A stretch of DNA of 64,000 bases from Alphaproteobacteria bacterium (lineage in GTDB: Bacteria > Pseudomonadota > Alphaproteobacteria > UBA7985): contig CAXQZM010000043.1 of the NCBI GenBank assembly GCA_964228455.1, positions 22,633 to 86,632 on the forward strand, given 5' to 3'. Position numbers and translations under genes: made by a program. Below the pieces are notes generated by a model. That model saw only the letters and a list, made by a program, of their open reading frames with translations. It ran no database searches and had not been told where the DNA came from. Below are positions 2,672 to 62,248 of this stretch, in pieces (the first letter of the stretch is position 1; the number at the start of each line of letters is the position of its first letter).

Positions 2672-4813
2672 ATGACTCGCTCCAACCTGCTGTATGCGCT
2701 CTACGGCCTGCTCGTCGTCTGGGCTGCATATGTGCTCCTGCCACCGCTCCAGGGGCTAGTGTCATCAACATACGGAGGTCTGGCGACAAGCTTACATAGT
2801 TTGTACCGCGCGTACGCAGATGCCGTAGCACCACTTCTGACATGGACATCAATTAACCGAGGCGTCTTCGCGGCAGTTATAATTATCATTTTAGCCACCT
2901 TATTTGTTTGGTCTATAGTCATCGGCTTAAGGCAGTCAAAAATACGAGAAAAAGACGAAGTGTTTGGTGATCCTGAGCGCACACGAGGGGGCTGGTACTG
3001 GATGGTCTGTGGCCTCGCATCTTTGGCATTGGTTTGGTTCTATTTTTCTTGGGGAGCAGCTCGAGCGTTTTTTCCTAATGCGGCTAACGAAATATGCCAG
3101 GTTGCAACGCTTAATACGGCAATGCGTCCAATCGGCGGTGCGCTGCCACCGCGATATTTCCTAGGAACAGAGGTCATAAGGGCAACGCATAATGAGATTT
3201 CAGAAATTAAACTTCTAAGTACCCGAGTTGCCCTAACAGAAGCACAACGCGCCGAGATAGGAACGCTAACAAATGAGTTAGAGGCGCTGATGTCAGAGCT
3301 CTCTGATCCAGAGGCTCTGTCAGAAGAAGTTTCCGCTGAAATCATTGCTGTCTCAGAGGGGCTAGCCTCAGCAGCAAATGACCTTCGGTCAGGATTTCAC
3401 CCTAATATGGCTGATGAACAAACTCTCCTTCAAAATAGAGCGCAAGGAGCAGGGGGCATCGCGGACGAGGCAACTAAAGAAATACCATTTAGCCCTATCT
3501 CTTCCCGCGGAAGTTTATTTGTGGCGGTTGCAGGAGATGTTGAGCTGCTAACAAAGCAATTTCAGGGAATTAAAAACCTTACTGGCGATCGCAAGGTTAG
3601 GATTGATGCGCTTAAAGATGATATAAAAGCGTTGAAGGCTGAGTTCGCTGAAATCACGGACCAGGATAGCGCGAACCGCACTCGGATTATTCGTAAACTC
3701 GAAGGCAGGTCGAGAGCCATTGCTCGGGGAACTATTTTTCCTCCTCAAGCATTAGATCCGATAGAAGATTCCATGCTGTCTCTTGCTAGCGCCTCTAATG
3801 TGGCGCAGGGCGGTCTTTGGTTTGTGGATGCCATCATGCTACCCACAAGTACGATAGAGAGAACCGCTACCGTATGCACTGAGTTTGGTTCTGGCCGCTG
3901 GTTACCAAAGCCACTCGATGTAATCGCGCGCTTTGGAGAGATGGCAAATATTCATCTAAACTCTGACGCAACGGCAGTAAATGAAGATACCGGACAGCCA
4001 TTCCGGCCTGGAGGAATGAAGGGCGTAAGACTTCTGTGGGTGAAGTGGTTGCCTATATCAGATGTCGTGGCGCCCCTTATTCCCAATGGTTTGGTAGATT
4101 TGTTGCCTGGGGAGTATCCAACGCATCAAGAGGATGGAACTTTCAGGCATAATTTCAAATCCCGTGTTCTGGCGTTTACTCAAGGCGATGTGAATCTTGG
4201 ATATATACCAATGCTCGATGGCCACGTTTGGGATTCTTTATACCGTGTCATCGTCGCTATGGCGTTGGGAATAGGCATTGGCGTCCCCTTGGGGATTATG
4301 ATGGGCGCATCGAGATTTTTCAAATCATATTTTGATCCTCTTATAGAACTGTACCGACCGATCCCGCCACTAGCATGGGCACCATTGATTTTGACCGCTA
4401 TTGGTCTTGGCGATGCAGGCAAAATCACGCTTCTTTTCATGGTAGCGCTCGCCATCATGATTATTTCTGCGAGAACGGGCGCAATATCAACGCAGCTCTC
4501 CAAAATTAGGGCATCTCATTCGCTCGGCGCAAGCAATCGGCAAATTTTACGGCAAGTGATTCTGCCTAATGCTTTGCCAGAAATACTTACTGGTATTCGA
4601 ATTGCGATCGGTGTTTGTTGGGGAACTTTGGTTGCAGCGGAGCTATTAGCTGGAGAGACGGGAATAGGGTTTGTTGAAAATATTGCATCAAAGACCCAGG
4701 ATTATACAACAATCTGGGTAACCATATTAATTATGGGAATGCTTGGCTTTGCACTCGATCTTCTCATGCGCTGGGTTATTGCAAAGACAATACCTTGGAG
4801 AGGGAAGGGGTGA
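2672..4813 (+). CDS. ABC transporter permease, TauC-like, with a ~430-aa insertion in the first periplasmic loop
   Basis: The C-terminal ~225 aa matches my recollection of the TauC permease core, including IELYRPIPPLAWAPL, the EAA-like region SLGASNRQILRQVILPNALPEILTGIRIA and ELLAGETGIGF. The N-terminus carries a TM1-like segment. In between lie two extra hydrophobic helices and a ~380-aa hydrophilic domain with helical/coiled-coil-like stretches. The stop of the upstream ATPase is 4 nt before the ATG. Confidence 0.8.
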   Translation: MTRSNLLYALYGLLVVWAAYVLLPPLQGLVSSTYGGLATSLHSLYRAYADAVAPLLTWTSINRGVFAAVIIIILATLFVWSIVIGLRQSKIREKDEVFGDPERTRGGWYWMVCGLASLALVWFYFSWGAARAFFPNAANEICQVATLNTAMRPIGGALPPRYFLGTEVIRATHNEISEIKLLSTRVALTEAQRAEIGTLTNELEALMSELSDPEALSEEVSAEIIAVSEGLASAANDLRSGFHPNMADEQTLLQNRAQGAGGIADEATKEIPFSPISSRGSLFVAVAGDVELLTKQFQGIKNLTGDRKVRIDALKDDIKALKAEFAEITDQDSANRTRIIRKLEGRSRAIARGTIFPPQALDPIEDSMLSLASASNVAQGGLWFVDAIMLPTSTIERTATVCTEFGSGRWLPKPLDVIARFGEMANIHLNSDATAVNEDTGQPFRPGGMKGVRLLWVKWLPISDVVAPLIPNGLVDLLPGEYPTHQEDGTFRHNFKSRVLAFTQGDVNLGYIPMLDGHVWDSLYRVIVAMALGIGIGVPLGIMMGASRFFKSYFDPLIELYRPIPPLAWAPLILTAIGLGDAGKITLLFMVALAIMIISARTGAISTQLSKIRASHSLGASNRQILRQVILPNALPEILTGIRIAIGVCWGTLVAAELLAGETGIGFVENIASKTQDYTTIWVTILIMGMLGFALDLLMRWVIAKTIPWRGKG

Positions 4814-4823
4814 TCAGGCCATC

Positions 4824-5693
4824 CTAACCATTTATCAACGCAGAAATTAGCGCAACTTTAACGATATCATCTGTGGTCGCGCCTCTTGATAGATCCGCGA
4901 TTGGCTTTGCAAACCCGTGTAGCAAGGGTCCTATCGCCTGTGCTCCAGCGAGTTCTTGCATTAGCTTATAGCCGATATTGCCAGCATCAATATTTGGAAA
5001 AATTAAGGTATTTGGATTTGCTGCGTTTATGCCTTTGCGTACACCAATTTCAGGATTTAGTGCAGCGTCGCCTTGGACAGGGCCGACGGCCTGGATGCCC
5101 TTGTTTTTTAATTCGCTTGCCGCTGCTCGCACTTTGTCGACGCTAGCGCCTGAGCCGCTTGTGCCAGTGGAATAGGACAAAAAAGAGATTCGAGCATCAC
5201 CAAAAAGCAACTTCGCAGCCTTCGCTAAGTGATGGCCAATATGAACTAGTTGATCTTTGTTTGGATTAATATTTACTGCACAATCGCCAAAAAGCAGCTG
5301 CTTTCCGCTTGGAAAACTCATTAAAAACGAAGAACAAATCAGGGGTGCATCCGCCTCCAGACCTACAGCTCGAAGACCTGCTCTTAAGACAGTTGCCGTC
5401 TCGGTTGCGGCACCAGAAACAAGGAAGTCACCTTTGCCTAGGGTCAATAAAGCTGCAGCTCGATGGGTTGGATCCTGTAAAAAAAGGTCAATTTTGTCTT
5501 CTGATAGACCAGGTTTAACCCTCCTAAAAGGCTCCCTCATTTTCTCCTCAGGATCGCCTGGTTCAACAATTATACACCCTAGATTTGCCAGACGATTGGC
5601 AGCCTCAGCTACTCGACTATCGTGCATTTCTGGTATGATGATGCGAGGGCAGGTTTTCTGCACATGGGCTTGAGCTATGTTTATGAGGGTCAT
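4824..5693 (-). CDS. phosphate acetyl/butyryl-transferase (PTA_PTB family)
   Basis: 289 aa, short-form Pta/Ptb architecture. The glycine-rich C-terminal half is typical of phosphotransacylases. Confidence 0.65.
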   Translation of the reverse strand: MTLINIAQAHVQKTCPRIIIPEMHDSRVAEAANRLANLGCIIVEPGDPEEKMREPFRRVKPGLSEDKIDLFLQDPTHRAAALLTLGKGDFLVSGAATETATVLRAGLRAVGLEADAPLICSSFLMSFPSGKQLLFGDCAVNINPNKDQLVHIGHHLAKAAKLLFGDARISFLSYSTGTSGSGASVDKVRAAASELKNKGIQAVGPVQGDAALNPEIGVRKGINAANPNTLIFPNIDAGNIGYKLMQELAGAQAIGPLLHGFAKPIADLSRGATTDDIVKVALISALING

Positions 5694-5765
5694 GGGTTTA
5701 TCCTTAGCGCTAAGAGGCGTCGAATTTAAGACATAGTCTAGGAATGGCTATGCTAGACTTTATTT

Positions 5766-7244
5766 ATGTCAGGGTTAACCCAGTTTAAAATGCTCATCAA
5801 TGGAGCAGATGTAAATGCAAGTGATGGAGGCAAGCGCAAATCTATTGATCCTTCTACAGGCGAGCCTTGGGCTGAGTTTCCCGAGGCAACAAAAGAAGAT
5901 GTGGATTTAGCTGTAAGGGCTGCGCACTTAGCCCAAACGTCAGGGCCATGGTCCAAACTGACGCCAACGGAGCGAGGCCAAGCTTTATACCGTCTTGCCG
6001 ACGCCCTATCTGAAAACGCTGACAACATTGGGAGGCTTGAGACCCGAGATACGGGAAAGCTTCTGAAAGAGACTGTCTGGCAGGCAAAATATATTTCTGA
6101 CTATCTGAGGTATTTTGGAGGCGCTGCTGATAAGATATCTGGTGACACGCTACCAATCGATAAGCAGGACATGTTTGTCTATACCTCGAGGGAGCCCCTC
6201 GGTGTAATCGCTGCGGTGATCCCATGGAATTCACAACTATTTTTGTCAGCAACAAAGATAGGCCCTGCACTAGCAATGGGAAATACCCTGGTTTTAAAGG
6301 CTTCAGAGCATGCTCCTGCGCCATTGCTAGCATTTGCCAAGCTAGCCAAAAAGGCGGGAATCCCTGATGGTGTGATTAACGTAATCACTGGCGGTGGAGA
6401 GCCATGTGGAAGAGAGTTAACCAGTCATAATCTTGTTTCAAAAATAGCATTTACCGGCGGTGGCTCCGCTGCGAGGCACGTAGTCAGAAACTCAGCTGAA
6501 AATTTTGCGCAGGTATCTTTAGAGTTAGGAGGAAAGTCACCTTTTATTGTTTTTGATGATGCCAATATATCAAGCGCTACAAATGCTTGTGTGGCAGGGA
6601 TTTTTGGGGCGTCAGGTCAATCTTGTGTTGCTGGGTCTAGGCTGTTGGTTCAAGAAGACATCGCGGATCTTTTCGTAGAAAAGCTTTCCAGAATTGCTGA
6701 AAATATTCGTTTGGGGGATCCCGCAGACGGTAGTACGGAGATGGGTCCGTTGTGCACTATCGAACAGATTAAATTGATTGACGACCAGATCAACAAAGCG
6801 GTTTCTGATGGCGCAAAGGTAGTATGTGGGGGAGGCCGGACAGAGGGGAAGGGCCTGTTTTTTAAGCCAACAATCGTTGACTGTCCTGATTCTAAAATAA
6901 ATATTTTAGACACGGAGCTTTTTGGGCCAGTTTTGTCTGTTGTCCGATTTAAAACCGAGGCTGAAGCAATCATGCTGGCCAACGATACTAAATACGGACT
7001 AGCAGCTGGGGTTTTTACCAATAATCATAGCCGGGCGTTACGTATGTCAAAGAATTTACGAGCAGGCATTGTGTGGGTAAATACATATCGAGCAATTTCA
7101 CCGATTGCTGAATTTGGTGGTGAGCGCATGAGCGGTTATGGCCGTGAAGCAGGCTTTCAGGCCTTATATGACTATTCCCAGACCAAGTCAGTTTGGATGA
7201 ACCTATCGGATGAGCCCGTAGCCAATCCGTTTCGGCCGCGTTAG
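5766..7244 (+). CDS. NAD(P)-dependent aldehyde dehydrogenase
   Basis: ALDH glutamate box ELGGKSP, catalytic Cys context GQSCVAGSR, and the FTGGGSAARHV motif. Confidence 0.85.
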   Translation: MSGLTQFKMLINGADVNASDGGKRKSIDPSTGEPWAEFPEATKEDVDLAVRAAHLAQTSGPWSKLTPTERGQALYRLADALSENADNIGRLETRDTGKLLKETVWQAKYISDYLRYFGGAADKISGDTLPIDKQDMFVYTSREPLGVIAAVIPWNSQLFLSATKIGPALAMGNTLVLKASEHAPAPLLAFAKLAKKAGIPDGVINVITGGGEPCGRELTSHNLVSKIAFTGGGSAARHVVRNSAENFAQVSLELGGKSPFIVFDDANISSATNACVAGIFGASGQSCVAGSRLLVQEDIADLFVEKLSRIAENIRLGDPADGSTEMGPLCTIEQIKLIDDQINKAVSDGAKVVCGGGRTEGKGLFFKPTIVDCPDSKINILDTELFGPVLSVVRFKTEAEAIMLANDTKYGLAAGVFTNNHSRALRMSKNLRAGIVWVNTYRAISPIAEFGGERMSGYGREAGFQALYDYSQTKSVWMNLSDEPVANPFRPR

Positions 7245-7249
7245 AACAA

Positions 7250-8284
7250 ATGAGGTTTCAACTCGCGATAAATCTAGAAAGAACCTCGTCAAGCCAGGAC
7301 ATGTCAAAGGTCGCCTCTCATACGTTAGAGATGGTTCAAATGGCTGATCAGGCAGGGTTCGAAATAGTTTGGGCTGCAGAGCATCATGCTTTGGAGATGA
7401 CAATTGCTCCCAATCCGTTTCAATTGCTTACTTGGTGGTCTCAACACACAAGCCAAATAAGAATGGGCTGCGGCGTGGCAAATGCAGCTTATTGGCATCC
7501 AATCAATTTGGCGGGTGAGGCCGCAATGTGTGATTTAATATCTGGGGGCCGCCTGGAGCTAGGTCTAGGATCAGGAGCATATCAGCGCGAATTTGATCGC
7601 ATGCGACCGGGTGTTGATCAAAAAGACGGCTACAGATACCTCCAGGAAATGCTGCCTCTCATTCGAGAGCTTTGGAGTGGAGATGTGGCTCATAATGGAG
7701 AGTTTTGGCAATTTCCCAGTGCAACTTCAGTGCCCAAGCCCATCCAAAATGACGTTCCCATCTGGGTTGCTGCTCGCAGCCCAGTTACTTTTGATTATGC
7801 GGTTGAACAGGATGCCAACATTATGTCATGGCCGCTTACGCTCGGGTTTGAAGAGGCCGAAAAATATGCTTCACTTCGAAAGGAAGCAATCGAAAAATTA
7901 CCAGGCTCAACACCAAAGAAATTTGTGATGATGCGTCATACAGCAGTGTATGAATCGTCAGAGGATCGAAGAGCTTCTATGGCTGCGATTCGTCATAATT
8001 TAAGCCAGTTTGGAAACTTAATGACTAAGCGAGGAGAGGTTGAAAACGGGTTTCCTGAGCTTGTCCCATTCGACCAGATTGAGGGTAATGCGCGAGTGGA
8101 TTCAAGCATGCTAGAGAATAATCTTGTGTTTGGATCTGCAGAGCAAGTTACGGAAAAGCTTAAGGCATATCAGTCACTCGGGATCGACGGTTTTATTTAT
8201 TATTCTTCAATGGGGCTTGATCACACAGTACAAAAGCGCTCCCTAGAAACCTTTATTGAGAGAGTGATCCCTAACTTCAACTGA
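7250..8284 (+). CDS. LLM-class (luciferase-like) flavin-dependent oxidoreductase
   Basis: 344 aa with TIM-barrel LLM-family features. Sits 6 nt downstream of the ALDH gene, so probably co-transcribed. Confidence 0.7.
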   Translation: MRFQLAINLERTSSSQDMSKVASHTLEMVQMADQAGFEIVWAAEHHALEMTIAPNPFQLLTWWSQHTSQIRMGCGVANAAYWHPINLAGEAAMCDLISGGRLELGLGSGAYQREFDRMRPGVDQKDGYRYLQEMLPLIRELWSGDVAHNGEFWQFPSATSVPKPIQNDVPIWVAARSPVTFDYAVEQDANIMSWPLTLGFEEAEKYASLRKEAIEKLPGSTPKKFVMMRHTAVYESSEDRRASMAAIRHNLSQFGNLMTKRGEVENGFPELVPFDQIEGNARVDSSMLENNLVFGSAEQVTEKLKAYQSLGIDGFIYYSSMGLDHTVQKRSLETFIERVIPNFN

Positions 8285-20940: not shown

Positions 20941-22329
20941 TTATTCTGCCGTCGCTATGCGCAGGATATTGGTTGATCCAGCTGTGCCAAAAGGCATGCC
21001 AGCTGTTATTACTAAAGGTGTTCCAGTTTTGATCTTCATCTCTTTGGCTAAGCCAACCGCAGTATCTACCACGTCTTTCCATGCGGCCAATGCTGGCGCT
21101 TTTCGGCAGTCAAGGCCCCAAGCCAGCTGCATTTGGCGTAAGGTTTGCATGTTGTCTGCAGCGCAGACAACGGGCGTATTAGGCCTGGTTTGAGCAACGG
21201 CTAGTGCCGTAGACCCGCTCGTTGTGAAGCAAAAAATAACTGGAGCTTTTAACGAATTTGCAGCTTGAGCAGCTGAGTTTGCAATGGTTTCAGAAATACT
21301 TGCGTTTGCGCTGATGCTAGCAGGCCTACTTCTTTGCGTACTTTCAGATTGCTCAATTACAGAGGCCATAAGTTGAACAGCCTCTCGAGGATAAGCCCCT
21401 ACTGCGGTTTCAGCTGAGAGCATTAATGCGTCGGCGCCGTCTTTAACTGCGTTAGCAACATCGGATGCCTCAGCGCGTGTTGGTGCAGGGCTTAATACCA
21501 TTGATTCCAGCATTTGTGCAGAAATAACCACTGGCTTGCCAGCTTTACGAGAGTCTCTGACCAATCTTTTTTGCCATTCTGGGATTTCCTCAGGAGGCAA
21601 ATCATAGCCCAGGTCCCCTCGCGCAATTACCAAGCCATCTGACTGTGTTATAGCCTCTATAGATGACTCCAGTGCAGCTCGAGTTTCTATCCTTGCTAGC
21701 AGTTTCATGGGCCCTGCAAGGGAGCGGATCAGCGTCCATTTTTTTATGTCGTCAGGCCAAGAAACACTTAACCAATCAATCCCAGCTCCAAGCGACCAGT
21801 TTATTTGGCTTTTGTCCTGGTCACTCAAAGTTTTTTTCAGAGGAGCAATCTTTGGGAGCGAAATAATCTTATGGCTAGATAATTCTGAGCCTGCGACCAC
21901 CGTACAATTAATTGAAACAGGGCTTATCTTTGTCACTCGAAGCATCACTCGCCCATCATCAAGACGAAGGAGGTCGCCAATGCTTGAAGATGTAAATGCT
22001 GCGGGCACAGGAAGATGAACCCGGTTTTCATCTCCTGGTGTTTCATCTTGGTCTAAACGAAATGTCTGGCCAGCTTCAAGTTGGACAGATCCGTTTAAGA
22101 ATTCACCTATGCGAAAGCGCGTTCCTGAAATGTCAGCAATTAACGCGATCGGCTTTCCAATAGCCGCTTCGACCGCTCGAACGTTAGAAACTAGAGCTTT
22201 ATGGGACGAGGTATCGTCGTATGAAAGATTGATGCGAAATGCATTGGCCCCCTCTTTGACCAAATCAGAGATAGCCGACTGAGTGGCAGATTTAGGACCT
22301 AAGGTTGCAATAATTTTTGTCGCTCGCAT
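20941..22329 (-). CDS. pyk: pyruvate kinase
   Basis: N-terminal MRATKIIATLGP, then MLSAETAVGAYP and the barrel and C-terminal domains. Confidence 0.9.
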   Translation of the reverse strand: MRATKIIATLGPKSATQSAISDLVKEGANAFRINLSYDDTSSHKALVSNVRAVEAAIGKPIALIADISGTRFRIGEFLNGSVQLEAGQTFRLDQDETPGDENRVHLPVPAAFTSSSIGDLLRLDDGRVMLRVTKISPVSINCTVVAGSELSSHKIISLPKIAPLKKTLSDQDKSQINWSLGAGIDWLSVSWPDDIKKWTLIRSLAGPMKLLARIETRAALESSIEAITQSDGLVIARGDLGYDLPPEEIPEWQKRLVRDSRKAGKPVVISAQMLESMVLSPAPTRAEASDVANAVKDGADALMLSAETAVGAYPREAVQLMASVIEQSESTQRSRPASISANASISETIANSAAQAANSLKAPVIFCFTTSGSTALAVAQTRPNTPVVCAADNMQTLRQMQLAWGLDCRKAPALAAWKDVVDTAVGLAKEMKIKTGTPLVITAGMPFGTAGSTNILRIATAE

Positions 22330-23289: not shown

Positions 23290-24228
23290 ATGTCATTAGC
23301 AATAAGCCAGCACCGCCTGATTCGAGTACTAGCGTTTTCCACCGTAATGATAGCAATCGCGTATTTGATTAATAACTTTTTGATTTTTGGCTTCGGTTTC
23401 CCTGGCGTGTTTGAGGGAGGGAGGTTAGCGATCTTGACTTATGCCATTGGACTTGCGGTTGCGGTGGGCCTCACGCTAGGACGCCGCGCCAAAGACTCAC
23501 TGGAAGTTACATCTAGAGAGCTTACCCAGTGTAACCAGTTCATGATTCGAGGATGTTTTTGGGCAATACTTCTGGTTGGTATGGTGGACGCAGCAATCTC
23601 ATTTCTTTATGTAGAGGGATGGCTACCCCAAATTTTGGGAACTAACTTGGCTGACAAACTTGGGAGTCAAGATTTCAGGGGAGCATACCTCCACTTGCCT
23701 GTTTTAATTCTCGGCTTTTTGTTTGCCACCATAAGCCGAGGGCTTGGATTTATCTGGTTAGTGTTGCTTGTTTTTCTTGCAGAACTTCTGATCGTAATTG
23801 GGGGAACCGTGTATTCTTATGAGCAAACGTTTCTCTCTGACTTAGTGCGTCTTTGGTATGCGGCGTTATTTATTTTTGGAGCAGCTAACGCGCTAGTGAC
23901 TGAGGGCCATGTGCGCGTTGATGTCTTGTTCAGTAAGTTATCCCACGAGAAAAAATCGCTTGTTAATTTATGGGGCAGCATATTGTTAGGGATGCCATTT
24001 GCGTGGGCAATTCTTTTAGCCGGCACATGGACAAGGGGACGTGTGGTGAACGCTCCAATCCTGAATTTTGAGATTGGCCAGGAGGGAGGCAGCGGTCTTT
24101 ACATTAAATACTTGATGGCTGGTTTCTTACTGGTCTTGGCGTTGTCCCTGATTTTACAGTTTGGGGCCCTGATATTAAGTTCAGCTAATAGTCACTATCT
24201 TAGGGCGCGCGAGGAAATCGTAAAATGA
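23290..24228 (+). CDS. TRAP transporter small permease (DctQ-like) with N-terminal extension
   Basis: The C-terminal ~150 aa has the four-TM DctQ pattern with a conserved HVRVDVLFSKLS block. About 150 extra N-terminal residues add ~4 TM helices. ATGA overlap with the downstream DctM. Confidence 0.5.
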   Translation: MSLAISQHRLIRVLAFSTVMIAIAYLINNFLIFGFGFPGVFEGGRLAILTYAIGLAVAVGLTLGRRAKDSLEVTSRELTQCNQFMIRGCFWAILLVGMVDAAISFLYVEGWLPQILGTNLADKLGSQDFRGAYLHLPVLILGFLFATISRGLGFIWLVLLVFLAELLIVIGGTVYSYEQTFLSDLVRLWYAALFIFGAANALVTEGHVRVDVLFSKLSHEKKSLVNLWGSILLGMPFAWAILLAGTWTRGRVVNAPILNFEIGQEGGSGLYIKYLMAGFLLVLALSLILQFGALILSSANSHYLRAREEIVK

Positions 24229-26819
24229 TTGAACCTTCTTTTGCGTTTCTTGCAGTTCTCGTTCTGCTGATGACCGGCGCGCTTGTTTTGGGGTTTCCAG
24301 TAGCGTTCGCTCTGCCTGGCTCCGCTATTTTAACCATAAGCTTGGCTTCATTAGCTGGGCACCTGATCGTAGGGGACGCCTCCGCGTATTTTGCACTAAA
24401 AAGCGATAGTTTTTTGACAGTACTCTCAACAGGGGTTACAAATTTTCGAGCAGTTTACTGGGAGCCCGGCCGAGACACATTAATAGCAATACCATTGTTC
24501 ATATTTATGGGTATTTTGCTGCAGCGCTCTAAGGTTGCAGAAGACTTATTGGTTACTATGGCTCAGCTTTTCGGCCCAATTCCAGGAGGTCTGGGGATTT
24601 CTGTTGTACTAGTTGGCGGGCTCTTGGCTGCAACCACAGGAATTGTTGGTGCAACGGTAATTACAATGGGGTTGATTTCATTACCCATCATGATGAGGAG
24701 CAAATACAGCACTTCACTAGCTGCTGGTACAATCTGCGCATCTGGAACTCTTGGCCAAATCATTCCGCCTTCCATCGTACTAATTATTTTAGCAGATCAA
24801 CTCGCATCAGCGGCAGACGTTGCTCAGTCAATTCGGCAGATAAATTGGGCGTCTGCAAATGATTCCCTTGGCTTTAATATGCCATCACATCTTGGCGTGA
24901 AAACTGCAAGCGCGGGCGATATTTTTCTTGGTGCGTTAATTCCTGGCGCGCTGATTTTGGTGCCACTCTATATAGTCTATATTTTGTCGCTTGCTTTGCT
25001 AAGGCCAGGAATGGCGCCAGCAATTAAGTTTGAGGGACGCCGAAAAGAATTTTACCGTGAGGTTTTCCGCTCCTTAATTCCCCCAATTCTATTAATTGGT
25101 TTGGTTTTGGGGTCCATCATAGCGGGCTATGCAACAGTAAATCAGGCAGGGGCCATTGGGGCGTCAGGTGCAATTCTGATGGCAGGCTATCAACTGATGG
25201 GCGCTAATCGCCTTCAGCATTATGCGCCCGTTACTTTAGCAATCACAGCCCTGCTCAGTATAATGATCCTAAAATCCAGCTTTGATCTAAACATCCGTAA
25301 TCCAAATAAAACGACATCTGACGTCATGGCGCTGATCATGGCTACAGGGTTTGTCCTTTCCTTACTCTTAGCTTTGGGCTGGTCTCTTTATCGCATATAC
25401 ATGAAGGACAACATATTGCGCGAGGTGTTAACTGAGGCAGCAAAAACAACATCGATGGTGTTCATTATTTTGTTAGGTGCTGTAATGCTTACCGTGGCAT
25501 TTCGGGCGTTTGGGGGAGACGCTCTACTGAGGGAGGCTCTAAGCTCAATGCCTGGGGGCTTTTTGGCAAAGTTTCTAGTCGTTATGCTTGTCATGTTTGT
25601 CTTGGGTTTTTTCCTAGACTTCATAGAAATATCAGTTGTGGTGGTTCCGATTACTGCACCAATTCTATTGGCCGATCCCGCTGCCAATATTTCTGTGATT
25701 TGGCTTGGTGTCATGATTGCCATGAATATTCAAACGTCATTTCTCACCCCACCATTTGGATTTGCACTGTTTTATTTAAGGGGGGTCGCGCCAGTAAACG
25801 TTGGCACGCTTGAGATTTACCGTGGCGTAGCAATGTTTATAGTTTTGCAGTTAGCCGCGTTGACTATTGTTGGTGCCAATGAGCGGCTGGTCAATTTTAT
25901 TCCAGAATATGTGCGACTTATTCGCGATACGGCACCTCCGCCTTCACAGCCCGCAGTCCAGAGATGTCTAGAGCCCCTTATGTTCTCAGATGCATTAGAG
26001 CGCGAAGATCTAGCTCGAACTGCAGCGCTCACACTAGGCCAAATCAACTTTGCTGACACCCCGCCTCAGGCTAGAAATATAATTATGAGTTCGATCGAAA
26101 GTGTCAGTAGTTCATACGAACAAATACATTTAATTCAGAACGCTACAGCGGCAGCAAATAGGTTTGAGAGTCAAGAATGGCTTATCGATGGTAAAGAGTG
26201 GTCTTATTCTTCACTTCACAAGCACGTCAGGAAACTGGATGGTAAGGCTCAGGTTCATGGTCTGGATCCTCAACTGGCAAATAGATGGGAGAATATTATT
26301 TTTCAGGCTCAAGTTTTGCGAGCGGATGCAGAGCGAGAAAGGCAGGAATTTAGGGCTTCTGAGGCGGCATATTCTGACGTTACAGAATTATACTATGATT
26401 ATGGGCGTGTTGATGCCCTTTCAGCAGTTCAAAGAAATTTGTTAGATCTTGAGCGTCTTCTAACCTCTTCAAGTTCTGCCATTATTGGAGAACTCTCCTC
26501 TATAGAGAAAGACCTAAGGTCTATAGGCGGGGTGTCTAATGTAACGGTGCTCTTTTCCAGATTTTACGACTCTCTGGATCTTGGAATTGTAGATCACTCT
26601 TTGGTCTATGAGAGGTATCAGAGCATTGTGGAGGCGCTCTCAGCCGAAATAGAGTGGCGTCAGCTGGGCCAAATAGAAATTGTTCCTGCCCTAAAGAATT
26701 TTTTGGATGAAGTCCGGAAAGGTGTAGCTCTACGAACCCTGGATAACATTCCAGCTAGATATCGTGGTCGACTAGCTTGGTGCCTATCCAGCCATGAAGA
26801 TATTTCCCTTCGCTTCTAA
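24225..26819 (+). CDS. TRAP transporter large permease (DctM-like) fused to a ~320-aa C-terminal soluble domain
   Basis: N-terminal ~545 aa is a DctM-type polytopic permease. The C-terminal ~320 aa (from TAPPPSQPAVQ on) is hydrophilic, helix-rich and has no motif I recognise. Confidence 0.7.
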   Translation: MIEPSFAFLAVLVLLMTGALVLGFPVAFALPGSAILTISLASLAGHLIVGDASAYFALKSDSFLTVLSTGVTNFRAVYWEPGRDTLIAIPLFIFMGILLQRSKVAEDLLVTMAQLFGPIPGGLGISVVLVGGLLAATTGIVGATVITMGLISLPIMMRSKYSTSLAAGTICASGTLGQIIPPSIVLIILADQLASAADVAQSIRQINWASANDSLGFNMPSHLGVKTASAGDIFLGALIPGALILVPLYIVYILSLALLRPGMAPAIKFEGRRKEFYREVFRSLIPPILLIGLVLGSIIAGYATVNQAGAIGASGAILMAGYQLMGANRLQHYAPVTLAITALLSIMILKSSFDLNIRNPNKTTSDVMALIMATGFVLSLLLALGWSLYRIYMKDNILREVLTEAAKTTSMVFIILLGAVMLTVAFRAFGGDALLREALSSMPGGFLAKFLVVMLVMFVLGFFLDFIEISVVVVPITAPILLADPAANISVIWLGVMIAMNIQTSFLTPPFGFALFYLRGVAPVNVGTLEIYRGVAMFIVLQLAALTIVGANERLVNFIPEYVRLIRDTAPPPSQPAVQRCLEPLMFSDALEREDLARTAALTLGQINFADTPPQARNIIMSSIESVSSSYEQIHLIQNATAAANRFESQEWLIDGKEWSYSSLHKHVRKLDGKAQVHGLDPQLANRWENIIFQAQVLRADAERERQEFRASEAAYSDVTELYYDYGRVDALSAVQRNLLDLERLLTSSSSAIIGELSSIEKDLRSIGGVSNVTVLFSRFYDSLDLGIVDHSLVYERYQSIVEALSAEIEWRQLGQIEIVPALKNFLDEVRKGVALRTLDNIPARYRGRLAWCLSSHEDISLRF

Positions 26820-26843
26820 GTAGATGCCCCCTAAAGGGCGGTC

Positions 26844-28175
26844 ATGAACAAACTTTTTCTTGTGACCGAACCTGGTGGCATGCCCCCCGAGGTTGTCGCT
26901 CAGCTATCGGCAAATAGTTTTGATGGGCTGCAAGGCCAGACGCAGCGCCTAACCCAAACCGATGGGAGTACACATTTGTATGTTGGTATTGCGGGGGAAG
27001 ACTTTGATTTTTGGACTGGTGCAATCGCCTGCAAGGCAGCGCATGGATTAGATAATCTGGAGTTGCAGAATCCTCAAATTTTAACTGAGAGCCGGGCGCA
27101 GGATTTTGTTCTATCCTGGCTTCTTGAATCTTATCGTTTTGAAACATTTAAGCCTTCGAAGAAACCGGCTATTCTTCATGGACTTACCGCAAGCGAACGG
27201 ACAGCTGCATTGGTTGAGGGCATTTATTTAACGCGTTCGTTAATTAATACGCCCGCGAACTTCATGAATCCAAAAGCACTTCAAAATACAGTTGAAGAGC
27301 TCGGGTCTCAGTATGGTGCGGTAATTTCTGTAGTGGAGGGCGAGGAGCTCAAAAAGGGGTTTCCACTAATCGACTGTGTAGGTTCTGCAGCGGGTAGGTG
27401 CGAAATGGCTCCTCGTTTAATAGAAATGAGTTGGGGCAAATCAGGATTAGCGCTGACGATTGTAGGCAAGGGAATTACTTATGATACTGGTGGGCTTAAT
27501 CTTAAGCCCGGTAGCTCTATGCGACTTATGAAGAAGGATATGGGGGGGGCTGCACATGCTCTCGGTTTGGCAAAAGTAATTATGCAGTTAGATTTGCCGA
27601 TCAGGTTGAGAGTATTAATACCAGCGGCAGAGAATGCCATTGGACCAGGGGCTTTTCGTCCTGGGGATGTTGTGAGGTCAAGATCCGGAGTAACTGTTGA
27701 GATTGACAATACAGATGCAGAGGGTCGTTTAGTTCTTGCTGACGCTCTCACGTACGCATCAGAGGCGAGTCAATCTGCTGATCTAACTTTTACAATGGCG
27801 ACATTAACGGGTGCTGCAAGGGTGGCCGTAGGGCCAAGCATTGTGCCCTATCTGGCCAGTGATAGTGAACTCATGTGGTCATTGCATGAGTTAAGCAAGA
27901 AAAATACTGATCCTATTTGGCCATTGCCATTGTTTGAGCCTTATGAAGCATACTTAGATTCTGATGTGGCGGATTTAGTAAACTCAGGCGGTGGAGGTTT
28001 TGCAGGAGCAATCACCGCTGCGCTGTTTTTGAAGAGGTTCGTCGGTTCTAGCTCCTGGGCTCATTTTGACCTTTATGGCTGGAATCCAGTAGCAAAACCT
28101 GGCCGTCCCAAAGGTGCTGCTGCACAGGGTCTTCTGAGCTTGGTATCCTATCTGGAAAGTTGGTCCAATGTCTGA
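26844..28175 (+). CDS. leucyl aminopeptidase (M17 family)
   Basis: M17 signature NTDAEGRLVLADAL, the ITYDTGG block and a conserved Lys (MKKDMGGAA). Confidence 0.85.
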   Translation: MNKLFLVTEPGGMPPEVVAQLSANSFDGLQGQTQRLTQTDGSTHLYVGIAGEDFDFWTGAIACKAAHGLDNLELQNPQILTESRAQDFVLSWLLESYRFETFKPSKKPAILHGLTASERTAALVEGIYLTRSLINTPANFMNPKALQNTVEELGSQYGAVISVVEGEELKKGFPLIDCVGSAAGRCEMAPRLIEMSWGKSGLALTIVGKGITYDTGGLNLKPGSSMRLMKKDMGGAAHALGLAKVIMQLDLPIRLRVLIPAAENAIGPGAFRPGDVVRSRSGVTVEIDNTDAEGRLVLADALTYASEASQSADLTFTMATLTGAARVAVGPSIVPYLASDSELMWSLHELSKKNTDPIWPLPLFEPYEAYLDSDVADLVNSGGGGFAGAITAALFLKRFVGSSSWAHFDLYGWNPVAKPGRPKGAAAQGLLSLVSYLESWSNV

Positions 28176-57225: not shown

Positions 57226-57772
57226 TAATCTTAACAACTCTGACTTTGATTTAGCTACATTAAAGGGTTCGGTAATTCAGCAACGTGCATGGCTTCGAGC
57301 TAACCTAGTTAACCGGCTGTTTCGATTAGGAAATGCTCTGCAAAATCAAACACAGGCGTTATTAGCTGTGGAATCTGCTGATTTAAGTGTTGTTCAGTTT
57401 CGCATTATGCTGCGGCTATCGCAAGCGGGCTCACAAAATGTTCAAGGTATTGCTGATCTTTTAGGTACAGACCGTTCAAATGTTTCCCGCGCATTGCCTA
57501 GCCTGCTTGAAAAGGGCTGGATTGATCAGCAGCCAAGTGCAGAAGATCGTCGTCAGTCAATTATAACGCTGACACAGGCTGGTGAGAGAAAAGTGACACA
57601 GTCACGAAACGGTACAGATGCAAGATTAAGAGCGCTCAGAGCTGCCTTTAATAATGACGAATTCGAGCAGCTTTTGGCTTATCTAGACCGTCTCGATGAG
57701 GTGCTGGCAATGTCTAGTGACAGCTTTTCTCTCAGTCCAGGTTCGGTGTTAGAATTGCGAAAGTCAGCATGA
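57218..57772 (+). CDS. MarR family transcriptional regulator
   Basis: Winged-HTH region (VQGIADLLGTDRSNVSRALPSLLEKGWIDQQPSAEDRRQSIITLTQAG). ATGA overlap with the downstream ligI. Confidence 0.8.
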   Translation: MSTNLNNSDFDLATLKGSVIQQRAWLRANLVNRLFRLGNALQNQTQALLAVESADLSVVQFRIMLRLSQAGSQNVQGIADLLGTDRSNVSRALPSLLEKGWIDQQPSAEDRRQSIITLTQAGERKVTQSRNGTDARLRALRAAFNNDEFEQLLAYLDRLDEVLAMSSDSFSLSPGSVLELRKSA

Positions 57773-58650
57773 CAAGATTTGTAATGGATGCGGATTATCT
57801 TCCCTTTCACCCCCATCCAGCTAAGCCTATATTTGTTGCCCCACCGGGCGCTGTTGATGCCCACTGCCACGTGTTCGGACCAGGTGACAAATTTCCCTAT
57901 CATGAGGATAGAAAATATACACCATGCGACGCTGGGAAGGAAAAGCTCTTTGAGCTTCGCGAGCACTTAGGCCTATCTAGAAACGTAATTGTGCAGGCTT
58001 CGTGCCATGGCCCCGATAACCGCGCTCTAATTGACGCGCTGAACTCTGCTGGCGACCTTGCTCGCGGTGTGGCCTTTGTTACTCCAGATGTATCTGAAGC
58101 TGACTTGTTAATAATGCATGAAGCTGGGGTTCGCGGCGTACGATTTAATTTTCTGAAGCGATTAGTCGATAACAAGCCCCGCTCTGATTATTGGCAGATT
58201 ATTGAGAAAATAAAACCTTTTGGCTGGCATGTGGTTGTCTACTTTGAGGCGAACGAATTATTTGAAATTGAGGACCTTCTTAATGACATTCCAATGAAGG
58301 TAGTCATCGATCACATGGGTCGTCCTGATGTAAAATCGCCTCTCGATCACCCTGACTATCTTCGCATTAAGTCTTTAATGGACAATGAAAAGTTTTGGAT
58401 AAAGGTCTCTTGCCCGGAGCGGCTCACAAGAATGGGCCCTCCCTATGATGACGTTGTTCCATTTGCTAAAGATTTGGTTGCCAGTTTTTCTGATCGTGTG
58501 CTCTGGGGCACTGACTGGCCTCATCCAAATATGAAATCTCACCAACCAGATGAGGGCATGCTCCTCGATTTGATACCAACAATTGCGCCTACTGAAGATC
58601 TTCAGCGCAAGTTATTAGTTGATAACCCTATGAAACTATACTGGAGCTAA
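57769..58650 (+). CDS. ligI: 2-pyrone-4,6-dicarboxylate hydrolase (amidohydrolase-2)
   Basis: Close block-by-block agreement with my recollection of Sphingobium LigI: PPGAVDAHCHVFGP, NVIVQASCHG, GVRGVRFNFLKRLVD, VIDHMGRPD, WGTDWPHPNM. 293 aa. Confidence 0.8.
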   Translation: MTRFVMDADYLPFHPHPAKPIFVAPPGAVDAHCHVFGPGDKFPYHEDRKYTPCDAGKEKLFELREHLGLSRNVIVQASCHGPDNRALIDALNSAGDLARGVAFVTPDVSEADLLIMHEAGVRGVRFNFLKRLVDNKPRSDYWQIIEKIKPFGWHVVVYFEANELFEIEDLLNDIPMKVVIDHMGRPDVKSPLDHPDYLRIKSLMDNEKFWIKVSCPERLTRMGPPYDDVVPFAKDLVASFSDRVLWGTDWPHPNMKSHQPDEGMLLDLIPTIAPTEDLQRKLLVDNPMKLYWS

Positions 58651-58652
58651 AT

Positions 58653-59051
58653 ATGGCCACCGACCCTGCCTTAGACGATATTCCTGGGACTTATGTTTTT
58701 ACTACTCAGGCATGCCGACAAGGCTACCGCCTAAATAAGTTTTGCAAGTCATTAGATGTTGAATCTAATCGAGAATCTTTTCGCTCTGACCCTGATGCGT
58801 ATTTAGACCAATTTAAACTCTCAGACGAGCAAAGGCGCGTGATTGAGGAGCGCGATTGGCTTGGGATGCTAAAAATTGGTGGTAATATATATTATACTTT
58901 CAAGCTGTGCATTTTTGATGGTTTGTCGATGCAGCATGTTGGGGGTTTGATGTCAGATATGACTGTCGAAGACTTCCGGCAAATGATGATGGATGGCGGA
59001 AGGCCAGTTGCGGGAAATACATCTAAAAAGGAAAATAATAGAAATGGCTAA
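58653..59051 (+). CDS. ligA: protocatechuate 4,5-dioxygenase alpha subunit
   Basis: DDIPGT-VFT-Q--R-GY-LN-F and GGN-Y...KL blocks as in LigA; 132 aa. Confidence 0.8.
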   Translation: MATDPALDDIPGTYVFTTQACRQGYRLNKFCKSLDVESNRESFRSDPDAYLDQFKLSDEQRRVIEERDWLGMLKIGGNIYYTFKLCIFDGLSMQHVGGLMSDMTVEDFRQMMMDGGRPVAGNTSKKENNRNG

Positions 59052-59886
59052 GCTAATTTCAGGGGCAGCTATGTCCCATATACCGCCCATTGGTGCTGCA
59101 TCAGACAATGGGAAAACGCAAGACCCCTATTACAAGCCACTATTTGATGGGTTTGAGCCAGCTCGAAAGTGGATGCGTGATACGAAGCCTGATACAGTGA
59201 TTATAATCTACAACGATCATGCGAGTGCGTTCTCTGTAGATCTAATAAATACGTTTGTATTGGGCGTTGGAGAAGAGTTTGAACCTCACGATGAAGGCTA
59301 TGGTCCCCGGAAGGTTCCAACCGGTATTGGAAATCCTGAGTTAGCAGAGCACATGCTCGAACATCTAATCATGAACGATTTTGATTTGGCTCTCGCAAAT
59401 GAAATGACCGTAGACCACGGCTTTACTGTGCCCCTTACTACGATGTGTGGTGCGCCTGACGAGTGGCCTTGCAAGGTCATTCCGCTTTGTGTCAACGTGA
59501 TAAAGTACCCGCAGCCTAAAGGCTCTAGATGCTTTGCGCTTGGAAAGGAAATTCGTCGAGCTATCGATAGCTATGATAGTGATGAGACTGTTGCGATATG
59601 GGGAACAGGCGGCATGAGCCATCAGCTCCAAGGGGAGCGCGCCGGTTTTATCAACGAAGAGTTTGATACAATGTTTCTGGATAAGCTTGGACCAGATCCA
59701 GAAAGTTTAGCTCGTATCCCTCATATAGATTATCTGCGTGACGCAGGCTCAGAGGGTATTGAGCTTATCATGTGGCTTATAATGAGAGGTGCAATGAAGA
59801 GTCCTAAAGAAGTCTACAGAAATTATCACGTGCCCATGTCTAACACAGCCGCAGGCCTGATTTGTTACGATGAGCAGCAACAATGA
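59044..59886 (+). CDS. ligB: protocatechuate 4,5-dioxygenase beta subunit (class III extradiol dioxygenase)
   Basis: Strong recalled similarity to LigB: SHIPP-GAA, VIIIYNDHASAF, DHGFTVPL, WPCKVIPL-VNV, GTGGMSHQLQG, GSEG-EL-MWLIMRGA. Start ATG 59044 overlaps the ligA end by 8 nt. Confidence 0.9.
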   Translation: MAKLISGAAMSHIPPIGAASDNGKTQDPYYKPLFDGFEPARKWMRDTKPDTVIIIYNDHASAFSVDLINTFVLGVGEEFEPHDEGYGPRKVPTGIGNPELAEHMLEHLIMNDFDLALANEMTVDHGFTVPLTTMCGAPDEWPCKVIPLCVNVIKYPQPKGSRCFALGKEIRRAIDSYDSDETVAIWGTGGMSHQLQGERAGFINEEFDTMFLDKLGPDPESLARIPHIDYLRDAGSEGIELIMWLIMRGAMKSPKEVYRNYHVPMSNTAAGLICYDEQQQ

Positions 59887-60836
59887 TTAGAGTTGCGTTG
59901 GCAGGGGCTGCAGGGGCTTTTGGTCAAAAGCACTTAGGAGCTATTTTGAATATTTCAGATGCTGAGCTTATTTGTCTAATTGGTAGCCCTGGTGATGGAG
60001 TGGAAGAGCTAGCGAACCAAAAAGGCATTAAAAGTTCTGAGGAAAGTCTTTCATTGGCTTTGGCCCGTGACGATATCGATGCCGTTATTCTTGCAACGCC
60101 AACACCCTTGCACGCTCAGCAAACTATAGCCTGTTTAGAGGCAGGAAAACATGTTTTATGTGAAATTCCAATGGCTGAAAGCCTAGCGGACTCAAAAAAA
60201 GTTGCGGCTGTTCACCAACAGTCTGGACTAGTTGGAATGTGCGGGCACATCAGAAGGTTTAATCCATCTCACCAATACATGTATCAGAAAATAAAAGCCG
60301 GTGAGCTGTGTATCCAGCAAATGGATGTGCAAACTTACTTTTTCCGGAGAGAGAACATTAACGCACTTGGTAAGCCAAGAACCTGGACTGACCATCTTCT
60401 CTGGCATCATGCAGCTCATACTATTGATCTCTTCATGTATCAGACTGGCGAGCAGGTATCGGAGGTTTTTGGTTTCCAGGGACCCAAGCATCCTGAGTTA
60501 GGCATCTCTATGGATATGACTATTGGTATGAAAACTCCCACGGGAAAGCTTTGCACATTGTCTTTAAGTTTCAACAATGACGGACCTTTAGGGACCTACT
60601 TTCGGTACATCTGTGATAATGGCACCTACATAGCCCGATATGATGAGTTGGTTAATGGCAGAGAAGAGGCCATTGACCTAACGGAAGTAGCCGTTTCGCT
60701 GAATGGCGTTGAACTGATTGATCGCGAGTTTATTTCTGCGATTAAAGAGGGTCGAAGGCCAAATGGTTCATTCGAACAGATCATCCCAACAATGGAAGTA
60801 ATGCACCGAATCGAACAACAAATGGGGGGCGAGTAA
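59883..60836 (+). CDS. ligC: 4-carboxy-2-hydroxymuconate-6-semialdehyde dehydrogenase (Gfo/Idh/MocA family)
   Basis: Near-colinear recalled match to LigC: VGMCGHIRRFNPSHQYMYQKIKAGEL-IQQMDVQTYFFRR, SWTDHLLWHHAAHT-DLF, LSLSFNNDGPLGT-FRYICDNGT-IARYD. Confidence 0.9.
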   Translation: MIRVALAGAAGAFGQKHLGAILNISDAELICLIGSPGDGVEELANQKGIKSSEESLSLALARDDIDAVILATPTPLHAQQTIACLEAGKHVLCEIPMAESLADSKKVAAVHQQSGLVGMCGHIRRFNPSHQYMYQKIKAGELCIQQMDVQTYFFRRENINALGKPRTWTDHLLWHHAAHTIDLFMYQTGEQVSEVFGFQGPKHPELGISMDMTIGMKTPTGKLCTLSLSFNNDGPLGTYFRYICDNGTYIARYDELVNGREEAIDLTEVAVSLNGVELIDREFISAIKEGRRPNGSFEQIIPTMEVMHRIEQQMGGE

Positions 60837-61570
60837 TGTCCGATAAAAAAACTGCCTTAGTTATTTCTGCTCACGCTGCTGATTTTGTCTGGCGCGCTGG
60901 TGGAGCGATCGCAAAACATGCAGCTCAGGGCTATGATGTCACAGTTGTTTGCCTTTCTTTTGGAGAGCGGGGGGAGAGCGCAAAACTCTGGAAGAAAGAT
61001 GGCATGACACTTGACCGAGTTAAGGCTGCCCGAGCGAATGAGGCTGAAAAAGCTGCCCATGCGCTAGGCGTACACGACCTACAATTTTTTGACTTGGGCG
61101 ATTATCCCTTAACTTTAAGTAAAGACGATAAGTACAAACTGGTTGATGTTATAAGGAAAGTGCAGCCAAAATTCATGATGAGTCACAGTGCTTATGATCC
61201 ATACAACACTGATCATATGTACACTACTTCCATCGCATTGGAAACGCGAATGATTGCTCAAGCTTGGGGCCACAACCCTGGCGAAAAGGTTTTAGGCGCG
61301 CCTCAGCTATACTTATTTGAGCCTCATCAAACAGAGCAAATGGGCTGGAAACCAAACGTGTTTTTGGACATTTCAGATGTATGGGACAAAAAACGTGCAG
61401 CCATTGAGTGTATGGAGGGCCAGGAGCACCTTTGGGACTTCTACACTAATGTTGCAGAGAATAGAGGCAATCATTTCCGCCGAAATTCTGGAGGACAGTC
61501 AGGAGGCCGAAAAGCTACCCATGCTGAAGGTTTTCAGGCTGTTTTCCCAAGCACTGTGGATGAGCTCTGA
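60836..61570 (+). CDS. PIG-L/LmbE-family protein, putative 4-oxalomesaconate hydratase of the GalB type
   Basis: LmbE-like N-terminus ([41 protein letters not shown]) with an HxxD metal-site pattern. Sits where the hydratase (LigJ) would be in a lig operon. Function inferred from GalB of the Pseudomonas putida gallate pathway, which belongs to this family. Confidence 0.55.
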
Positions 61571-62244: not shown

Positions 62245-62248
62245 GCTT

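Follow-up and report, generated by a model that had tools for sequence, protein, structure and literature searches.

Enlarged TRAP transporter membrane subunits without a linked binding-protein gene in an alphaproteobacterial lineage

Introduction

TRAP (tripartite ATP-independent periplasmic) systems are textbook secondary transporters, strictly dependent on a soluble binding protein, and to our knowledge all solved TRAP structures come from the compact sialic-acid and isethionate systems. Here we describe a pair of TRAP membrane-subunit genes, one for the small DctQ-like subunit (Q) and one for the large DctM-like subunit (M), which lie at positions 23,290 to 26,819 of a 64,000-nucleotide stretch of DNA from Alphaproteobacteria bacterium (assembly GCA_964228455.1, contig CAXQZM010000043.1); this whole stretch is referred to as the window. 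Both subunits are much enlarged and no gene for a solute-binding protein (SBP; DctP, the P subunit) stands beside them. With a probability of roughly 0.65, we consider the pair to be a recently orphaned, functional SBP-dependent importer that uses a P subunit encoded elsewhere.

Among the closest described systems, the sialic-acid transporters SiaPQM of P. profundum (7QHA) and H. influenzae (7QE5, 8THI) have the same elevator fold of M with twin-proline Na+ sites, a four-helix Q and an M topology with both termini outside (N-out/C-out), and in PpSiaQM the two subunits are encoded by separate genes, as in the window. They lack, however, the four extra Q helices, the two-helix insertion in M and the tail of about 300 amino acids (aa) seen here, whereas the window lacks a linked P. 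SiaM has 12 transmembrane (TM) segments in an N-out/C-out arrangement, of which TM10-12 belong to the mobile transport domain; the two Na+ sites are built from twin-proline motifs where TM5 and TM11 are broken, and an SBP docking bowl has been described for SiaQM (PMC9971032). TakPQM of Rhodobacter sphaeroides (TakP 2HZK/2HZL; 7UG8) falls into the same SBP subgroup as the P subunits of the relatives of our pair and carries the same 'mannitol/chloroaromatic' COG naming. The nearest tail-less systems, for example on the Ruegeria TM1040 megaplasmid, combine a P of only about 40% identity with a Q of 165 aa and an M of 516 aa, while the window has no P at all. In Pelagibacter, the system of SAR11_0864 would combine P, long Q and tailed M as is usual for the family, whereas the window lineage has no SBP gene; the study of SAR11 SBPs (Clifton et al. 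2024, PMC11485210) deals with the SBP only and does not mention enlarged membrane subunits. Two further comparisons are more distant. TAXI-TRAP systems with a fused QM (TIGR02123) likewise have a non-canonical membrane part, with an extra helix and a fusion, but there Q is fused to M and the SBPs are of the TAXI type, whereas Q and M are separate in the window and the extra mass is a predicted periplasmic domain. ABC importers of the OpuA/GlnPQ type have an extracytoplasmic domain tethered to the translocator, as the tail would be here; their fused domains, however, are recognisable SBP folds that replace the soluble SBP, while the tail is all-helical and coexists with an SBP nearly always.

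Results

In the window lineage, the DctP gene has been replaced by a nitroreductase gene. The sister clade (loci L004, L005 and L006), whose M subunits are 59-61% identical to that of the window, shares the downstream order of M17 peptidase, pseudouridine synthase, RsmD-like methylase and CtaA, and in L004 the glyoxalase and pyruvate kinase genes upstream are the same as well. A DctP of 364-366 aa is encoded directly before Q in each of the three sister loci; the same slot holds a nitroreductase in seven independent assemblies, namely the window and L007-L012, which include a 603-kb ENA contig (ERZ27251128:k141_230916) and the NCBI metagenome-assembled genome (MAG) GCA_049605915.1 ('Alphaproteobacteria bacterium'). 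A possible DctP remnant in the nitroreductase slot was discarded, as tblastn, phmmer and a hidden Markov model (HMM) were all negative there. Throughout the 64-kb window, tblastn, phmmer and the family HMM found no DctP, and there is neither a DctP nor a TAXI gene; a Pfam scan of 20 SBP-sized open reading frames (ORFs) in it returned only two SBPs, both belonging to ABC (ATP-binding cassette) systems. An earlier sequence-only reading of the window had noted the missing SBP gene between nitroreductase and M17 aminopeptidase flanks, and both observations hold. The flanking genes are as follows.

20941..22329, minus strand: pyruvate kinase, conserved upstream flank; Pfam PK and PK_C in the matching genes of L004 and L007-L012
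22598..23269, plus strand: nitroreductase-family gene, Pfam Nitroreductase E 1.2e-20; occupies the DctP slot of the sister clade
26844..28175, plus strand: M17 leucyl aminopeptidase, Pfam Peptidase_M17 E 7e-94; downstream flank, syntenic in L004, L005 and L006

Between them, the Q ORF (23290-24228, plus strand, 312 aa, DctQ-like) and the M ORF (24225-26819, plus strand, 864 aa, a DctM core with a tail of about 308 aa) have exactly the coordinates and sizes first reported for them, and they overlap by four bases (ATGA), so that the products are separate polypeptides and not a fusion. The pyruvate kinase is 70% identical to its L004 ortholog, and the nitroreductase, a product of 223 aa whose gene ends 20 bp before the start of Q, reached the cut-off of no NCBIfam model. 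Given the spacings of 20 bp, -4 bp and 24 bp along nitroreductase, Q, M and M17, co-transcription of the four genes is suggested, and the nitroreductase gene is probably co-transcribed with Q; scans of the locus for consensus promoters and terminators gave the same counts as in shuffled sequence. In the spacer between the M stop and the M17 start, positions 26839-26840 read CG in the window and TC in 6/6 other assemblies of the lineage, a dinucleotide that may lie in the ribosome-binding region of M17.

The enlarged architecture itself is a family trait and not unique to the window, as there are thousands of homologs of about 885 aa. A search with the 864-aa M gave at least 8000 matches, the best 120 of which are all 864-912 aa long with 97-100% query coverage. 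The homologs come from marine Alpha- and Gammaproteobacteria, among them SAR11 and SAR116; family taxa include Pelagibacteraceae, Puniceispirillum, Loktanella, Roseibium, Hoeflea, Thalassobaculum, a range of Rhodospirillales and MAGs of Gammaproteobacteria. The SAR11 versions are highly abundant in metagenomes, with 90%-identity clusters of 684-1861 members. To describe gene content, 80 loci, one genome per species, were scored with local HMMs, the seed of the Q-extension model including the window sequence. The Q extension is present in 56/56 tailed loci with a scored Q and in 0/20 tail-less loci; tail and Q extension, always found together in the scored loci, are inherited as one module. The closest tail-less DctMs (L013 and L073-L093; 458-609 aa as stop-to-stop ORFs) have the enlarged core together with a normal short Q, as in the closest tail-less relative (e.g. 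Ruegeria sp. TM1040 megaplasmid; 165-aa Q, 516-aa M), and since they share the enlarged core, core enlargement predates the module of tail and Q extension. We refer to the proteins that carry the module as the long-QM subfamily. Database names are generic ('TRAP transporter large permease subunit'), and literature searches that covered structural TRAP papers and the SAR11 SBP paper gave no description of the tail or the Q extension. Long-QM is a so far uncharacterised subfamily, an ordinary TRAP elevator with an undescribed periplasmic and membrane module.

The long-QM family is normally tripartite, with a P-Q-M operon. Among 60 tailed loci, 57 had enough upstream sequence, and the order DctP, long Q, tailed M is found in 56 of these 57, the sister clade included. 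The question raised by the sequence-only reading, whether such a QM pair always lacks an adjacent SBP, thus receives a divided answer: no for the family, yes for the window lineage with its seven assemblies. Its suggestion of an SBP-independent variant does not stand as a property of the architecture. The one exception among the 57, Roseibium aggregatum PHM038 (L066), has a gene for a transporter of the major facilitator superfamily (MFS) before Q. This locus (3856-7613) is an independent DctP-less long-QM pair in which the preceding MFS gene is of the YbfB type and M has a degenerate linker (NAPPTSTP) and C-terminal motif (SPRHIFLYF).

Within M, a complete DctM permease precedes the tail.

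24225..25892, plus strand: DctM core, residues 1-556, a Na+-coupled elevator permease; Pfam DctM E 2e-53
24753..24776, plus strand: GQIIPPSI, residues 177-184, TM5 twin-proline motif in the Na1 site region; aligns to SiaM 'lvppsi'
25158..25364, plus strand: core insertion, residues 312-380, with two hydrophobic segments; no counterpart in solved SiaM
25740..25763, plus strand: FLTPPFGF, residues 506-513, TM11 twin-proline motif in the Na2 site region; aligns to SiaM 'ltppmgmal'

M matches Pfam DctM (PF06808) with 182.1 bits (cut-off 23.8; E 2e-53) in three stretches over residues 15 to about 560, and at low sequence similarity (phmmer E 5e-16) it aligns to the end of solved SiaM, query residue 562 corresponding to residue 421 of 427 in 7qha_B. 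By these alignments the core comprises about 556-562 aa, somewhat more than the 545 aa or so initially assigned to it. M stays below the curated cut-off of NCBIfam TIGR00786 (225.8 vs 268.45 bits), and as this match is interrupted by insertions, M represents a divergent subfamily; the fused-QM/TAXI-type model TIGR02123 gives 33.6 bits against a cut-off of 320.65. The additions to the core are an N-terminal one of about 34 aa and the two-helix insertion, which is the gap between aligned blocks 225-311 and 381-562 (SiaM chain 160-241 and 246-421), has hydropathy peaks nearby at 333-355 and 363-389, and is common to the tail-less relatives. Since the insertion carries two hydrophobic segments, the orientation of the downstream part is unchanged. 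Conservation is high, 313 of the 556 core positions being at least 90% conserved in 120 homologs; both twin-proline motifs are invariant across the family, and T508 corresponds to SiaM T369 by alignment. At residue 323 (25191-25193) the window has Gln where 5/6 other assemblies and the family consensus (at least 90%) have Arg, a strain-specific change at a conserved position.

The Q subunit is a DctQ-like scaffold preceded by four further helices.

23290..23739, plus strand: Q N-terminal extension, residues 1-150, four extra TM helices
23740..24228, plus strand: DctQ core, residues 151-312, four TM helices, scaffold subunit

Pfam DctQ (PF04290) matches residues 174-274 only and below its cut-off (23.1 vs 28.3 bits, E 7e-5). 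The AlphaFold2 model of Q (predicted local distance difference test, pLDDT, 87.7; predicted template modelling score, pTM, 0.85) has eight long helices, in agreement with the four-helix N-terminal extension that had been read from the sequence. The last four superpose on SiaQ (7qha_A; Foldseek probability 0.94, TM-score 0.56, 153 columns), whereas the first four, at residues 2-35, 45-63, 71-108 and 127-148, have no fold match in PDB by Foldseek. The predicted topology of the extension is N-in, and the loop joining helices 3 and 4, which would be periplasmic, is conserved. Its origin as a duplicated DctQ core was considered and rejected (HHalign probability 2%). Full-length Q homologs measure 310-360 aa.

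The C-terminal third of M is the tail domain.

25893..26816, plus strand: C-terminal tail domain, residues 557-864, modelled as all-helical and predicted to be periplasmic
25893..25964, plus strand: TM12 exit and proline-rich linker (NFIPEYVRLIRDTAPPPSQPAVQR); N557, P560, P571-573 and P576 invariant
25965..25967, plus strand: Cys581, first half of a putative disulfide
26781..26783, plus strand: Cys853, second half of the putative disulfide
26793..26816, plus strand: HEDISLRF C-terminal motif; family consensus H-[RK]-D-[IVL]-S-L-x-F-COOH

Neither the tail nor the Q extension has a model in Pfam (2025 copy) or NCBIfam (2026), and the tail has no sequence match in these or in PDB. The AlphaFold2 model of the tail is a bundle of long helices (pLDDT 93.8, pTM 0.88), and a Foldseek comparison with PDB, the check that had been proposed for it, returned no known fold and no SBP or sensor fold (best E 0.07, TM-score at most 0.27), so that the description of an unrecognisable helical tail of about 320 aa is borne out with a length of about 308 aa. 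Because of the high pLDDT and 24 positions that are invariant across divergent homologs, the tail can be taken as a real conserved domain and not chance sequence. The fixed positions include N557, P560, the TAPPPxxP linker, C581, R669, W811, R837, C853 and F864, and the window tail keeps TAPPPSQP, both cysteines and HEDISLRF; tail identity among homologs is 24-40%, far below the conservation of the core. A search of 1.84 billion representatives with a tail profile yielded 723 clusters (50% identity), and all matches inspected were long DctMs or pieces of them that had been truncated or frameshifted; the domain is therefore confined to DctM C-termini. The sequence-only reading had asked whether the tail might be a known domain common in DctM proteins: it is indeed common in them, yet corresponds to no named or known domain. 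Candidate occurrences in other architectures were dismissed, since the shorter matches turned out to be long DctMs with a truncated N-terminus or a frameshift, and no tail homologs were found on annotated plasmids, full-length queries giving tail-less relatives only. Most family tails, including the main clade and P0005, carry a charged coiled-coil hairpin insert of about 44 residues (alignment columns about 119-162) that is missing from the window tail and from P0002, and tail lengths range over 308-357 aa.

The tail is almost certainly periplasmic, judging by three features: SiaM ends outside after TM12, there is no later TM segment, and a Cys pair co-varies. By hydropathy, no hydrophobic segment follows residue 556. 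Exactly two cysteines occur in 228/229 unique complete tails, the first about 25 residues after the tail starts and the second 12 residues before its end, the remaining tail has neither, and none has a single one; at position -12, Cys is found in 310/311 unique C-termini. Such strict pairing is the pattern of a structural disulfide and therefore points to an oxidising compartment, so that Cys581 and Cys853 may well be bonded. The sole tail without the pair, the representative-library tail fragment P0259, has C->S and C->D together, which fits two residues acting as a unit. At the C-terminus (n=311), F is last in 309, with L(-3) in 305, S(-4) in 299, D(-6) in 301 and H(-8) in 300, giving the extended consensus C-x-[SA]-x-H-[RK]-D-[IVL]-S-L-x-F-COOH. 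The Glu of HEDISLRF, which stands in place of R/K, was considered as a signature of P loss and rejected, since E occurs in 12/311 C-termini, P-containing loci (L055) among them.

These observations bear on the original interpretation of the tail as a cytoplasmic regulatory or coupling domain in a transceptor-like arrangement. Such a role would suit a hydrophilic, helical tail of net acidic composition (33 K+R vs 44 D+E), and TeaD, a universal stress protein (USP) that works with TeaABC, is a cytoplasmic TRAP accessory and may be counted in its favour. However, solved SiaM ends in the periplasm, M aligns to its last helix and no further TM follows; a strictly co-varying Cys pair is unlikely in a reducing cytoplasm; and searches of Pfam, NCBIfam and PDB, the last by sequence and by fold, detected no regulatory domain, be it USP, CBS or another. 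We therefore consider a cytoplasmic location highly improbable.

A periplasmic tail could, in principle, replace the binding protein: together with the extra Q helices it would be a built-in receptor or gate, and P would be dispensable. The tail is joined to the mobile transport domain and has invariant residues (R669, W811, R837, Y661, H665, H857) of the type that bind organic anions; DctP-less long-QM arose at least twice, in this lineage and in Roseibium aggregatum L066; and ABC importers in which a receptor domain is fused to the membrane part, as cited in PMC1839085, offer a precedent. However, a very highly conserved P gene stands beside the genes for the module in 56/57 loci, the tail resembled no SBP or sensor domain in the fold comparison, and the window tail is not distinct from those of its P-containing sisters, the missing hairpin being found also in P0002 and HED also in L055. 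SBP independence is thus quite improbable.

A further question is whether the orphaned pair still functions. Both ORFs are intact in 7/7 assemblies, with no stop or frameshift over 3.5 kb of coding sequence, and the window pair keeps all family-invariant residues, both twin-proline motifs, the Cys pair and the terminal Phe. Substitution rates were compared in two ways. In an unrooted comparison of four syntenic genomes, with the ratio of the window branch to the mean sister branch as the measure, the control genes M17, RluB and RsmD gave 1.0-1.2 (equidistant), Q 1.8 and M 2.7. A Tajima relative-rate test rooted with the main clade as outgroup reduced this apparent acceleration to none for Q (ratio about 1.0) and to 1.6-2.2 for M (p 0.0003-0.03), or 2.1-4.8 at positions at least 90% conserved in the family. 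The extra M substitutions are mostly conservative (M/L, V/I, A/G, E/D). In the population, the ratio of nonsynonymous to synonymous polymorphism (pN/pS) is 0.49 for QM vs 0.10 for 18 flanking genes (Fisher p 0.03), with 10 single-nucleotide polymorphisms (SNPs) only. In our reading of these sequences, M seems to be under a modestly relaxed or shifted constraint, and not in decay.

The contrary view, that after the loss of DctP the pair became a useless remnant that transports nothing and drifts towards pseudogenes, is an unlikely alternative. In the single TRAP system assayed in proteoliposomes, QM depended strictly on its SBP (PMC9971032), the lineage-specific changes in M amount to 1.6-2.2 times those of the sisters and to 2-5 times at conserved sites, a pN/pS of 0.49 is indistinguishable from neutral (binomial p 0.28, 10 SNPs), and in L066, the second locus without P, both the linker and the C-terminal motif are degenerate. 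A remnant is nevertheless difficult to reconcile with seven assemblies free of stops and frameshifts, with the retention of invariant residues, Na+-site motifs, Cys pair and C-terminal F, with a Q that is not accelerated and an M whose extra changes are mostly conservative, and with a tight, apparently co-transcribed cluster in a seemingly compact marine genome.

With regard to the partner and substrate, P is the most conserved component of the family, with 73-92% identity among the top 120 matches and at least 57% across clades including SAR11; sister-clade P subunits are 64-69% identical to those of SAR11. The P subunits of the relatives match the TakP/alpha-keto-acid group of SBPs over their full length, the C-terminal region included (2hzk, 7ug8, 4pet; E about 1e-69 to 1e-71). 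P, long Q and tailed M occur together in the Pelagibacter genomes L026-L036 and L060. SAR11_0864, the sole TRAP SBP of Ca. P. ubique HTCC1062, binds isethionate and R/S-2,3-dihydroxypropane-1-sulfonate (DHPS) (PMC11485210, PMC13335735), and the gene after it is annotated with the COG name of this family, 'mannitol/chloroaromatic compound transport' (PMC5069961). Gene order and annotation names suggest that SAR11_0864 is the P of a long-QM system, and by analogy the substrate of the window pair may be a small organic anion, for instance a C2/C3 sulfonate or an alpha-keto acid. In HTCC1062, the 202 bp that separate SAR11_0864 from the transporter gene SAR11_0865 (834435-834636) appeared in a 2009 list of candidate structured RNA regions (PMC2704228), and an RNA in this spacer could set the ratio of P to QM expression in the family.

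A few further observations concern other genes. Elsewhere in the window, a 713-aa ABC permease (2672-4813, plus strand) has a BPD_transp_1 match confined to residues 537-705, leaving about 530 N-terminal residues unexplained, with an NMT1-like SBP (826-1770) and an ABC ATPase (1801-2667) as operon partners, and a cluster at 57769-63289 (plus strand) resembles a protocatechuate 4,5-cleavage pathway, with Amidohydro_2, LigB extradiol dioxygenase, GFO_IDH_MocA/OxRdtase_C dehydrogenase and PrpF members. In locus L001 (2505-3853), a few kb upstream from the TRAP operon, a gene for a CesT-type chaperone precedes one for an ADP-ribosyltransferase toxin (ART / ADPrib_exo_Tox).

Discussion

We propose that the window pair works as its P-linked relatives do. 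M contains a complete Na+-coupled elevator core and Q a normal four-helix scaffold, both enlarged, and in this model the tail, which is attached to TM12, would sit at the periplasmic end of the mobile transport domain. Through the putative Cys581-Cys853 disulfide, the conserved C-terminal peptide would be linked to the beginning of the domain, beside the linker leaving TM12. Lying on or beside the enlarged Q scaffold, the tail might form an accessory platform next to the P docking bowl, which could help to dock, retain or gate P without replacing it, and the loss of the linked P gene might have somewhat relaxed or shifted the constraint on M. The role of the tail in SBP docking is our inference.

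Several points weigh against a functional importer with a distant P and a docking tail. No P subunit for this QM pair was found, the window included, and none of the 10 closest NCBI-sourced DctP clusters has an accession from the MAG of this organism, though this negative is weak. Conservation is lowest in the tail (24-40%) and highest in P (57-92%), unlike what a large interface between the two would show, and the tail-less relatives use a similar P (about 40% identical) without any tail. In addition, the raised pN/pS of QM comes from 10 SNPs, and nearby membrane proteins are raised as well, while SAR11_0864 is linked to the SAR11 long-QM loci by gene order and annotation names, not by sequence.

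A bolder version may also be considered, in which the tail and extra Q helices act as a membrane-anchored periplasmic co-receptor that holds P docked, or gates the elevator via its disulfide-pinned, invariant C-terminal peptide (H-R-D-I-S-L-x-F-COOH); in lineages that lost P, as here and in Roseibium aggregatum L066, QM could then work with a foreign SBP or with none. We regard this as speculative and on balance unlikely.

The window lineage offers a natural experiment, in which the P gene was swapped out cleanly while Q and M persist without a linked partner. The long-QM membrane part has about 450 extra residues, made up of four Q helices, two M helices and a periplasmic domain that seems to be stapled by a disulfide, in a very abundant marine subfamily that probably includes the sole TRAP transporter of SAR11. 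Given its predicted position on the moving transport domain beside the SBP docking site, the tail bears on how docking is coupled to elevator movement, and its large extramembrane mass, about 35 kDa, would suit cryo-electron microscopy. Should the co-receptor idea prove true, it would mean that SBPs and secondary transporters can be coupled in a new way, one on which SAR11 relies in its only TRAP system.

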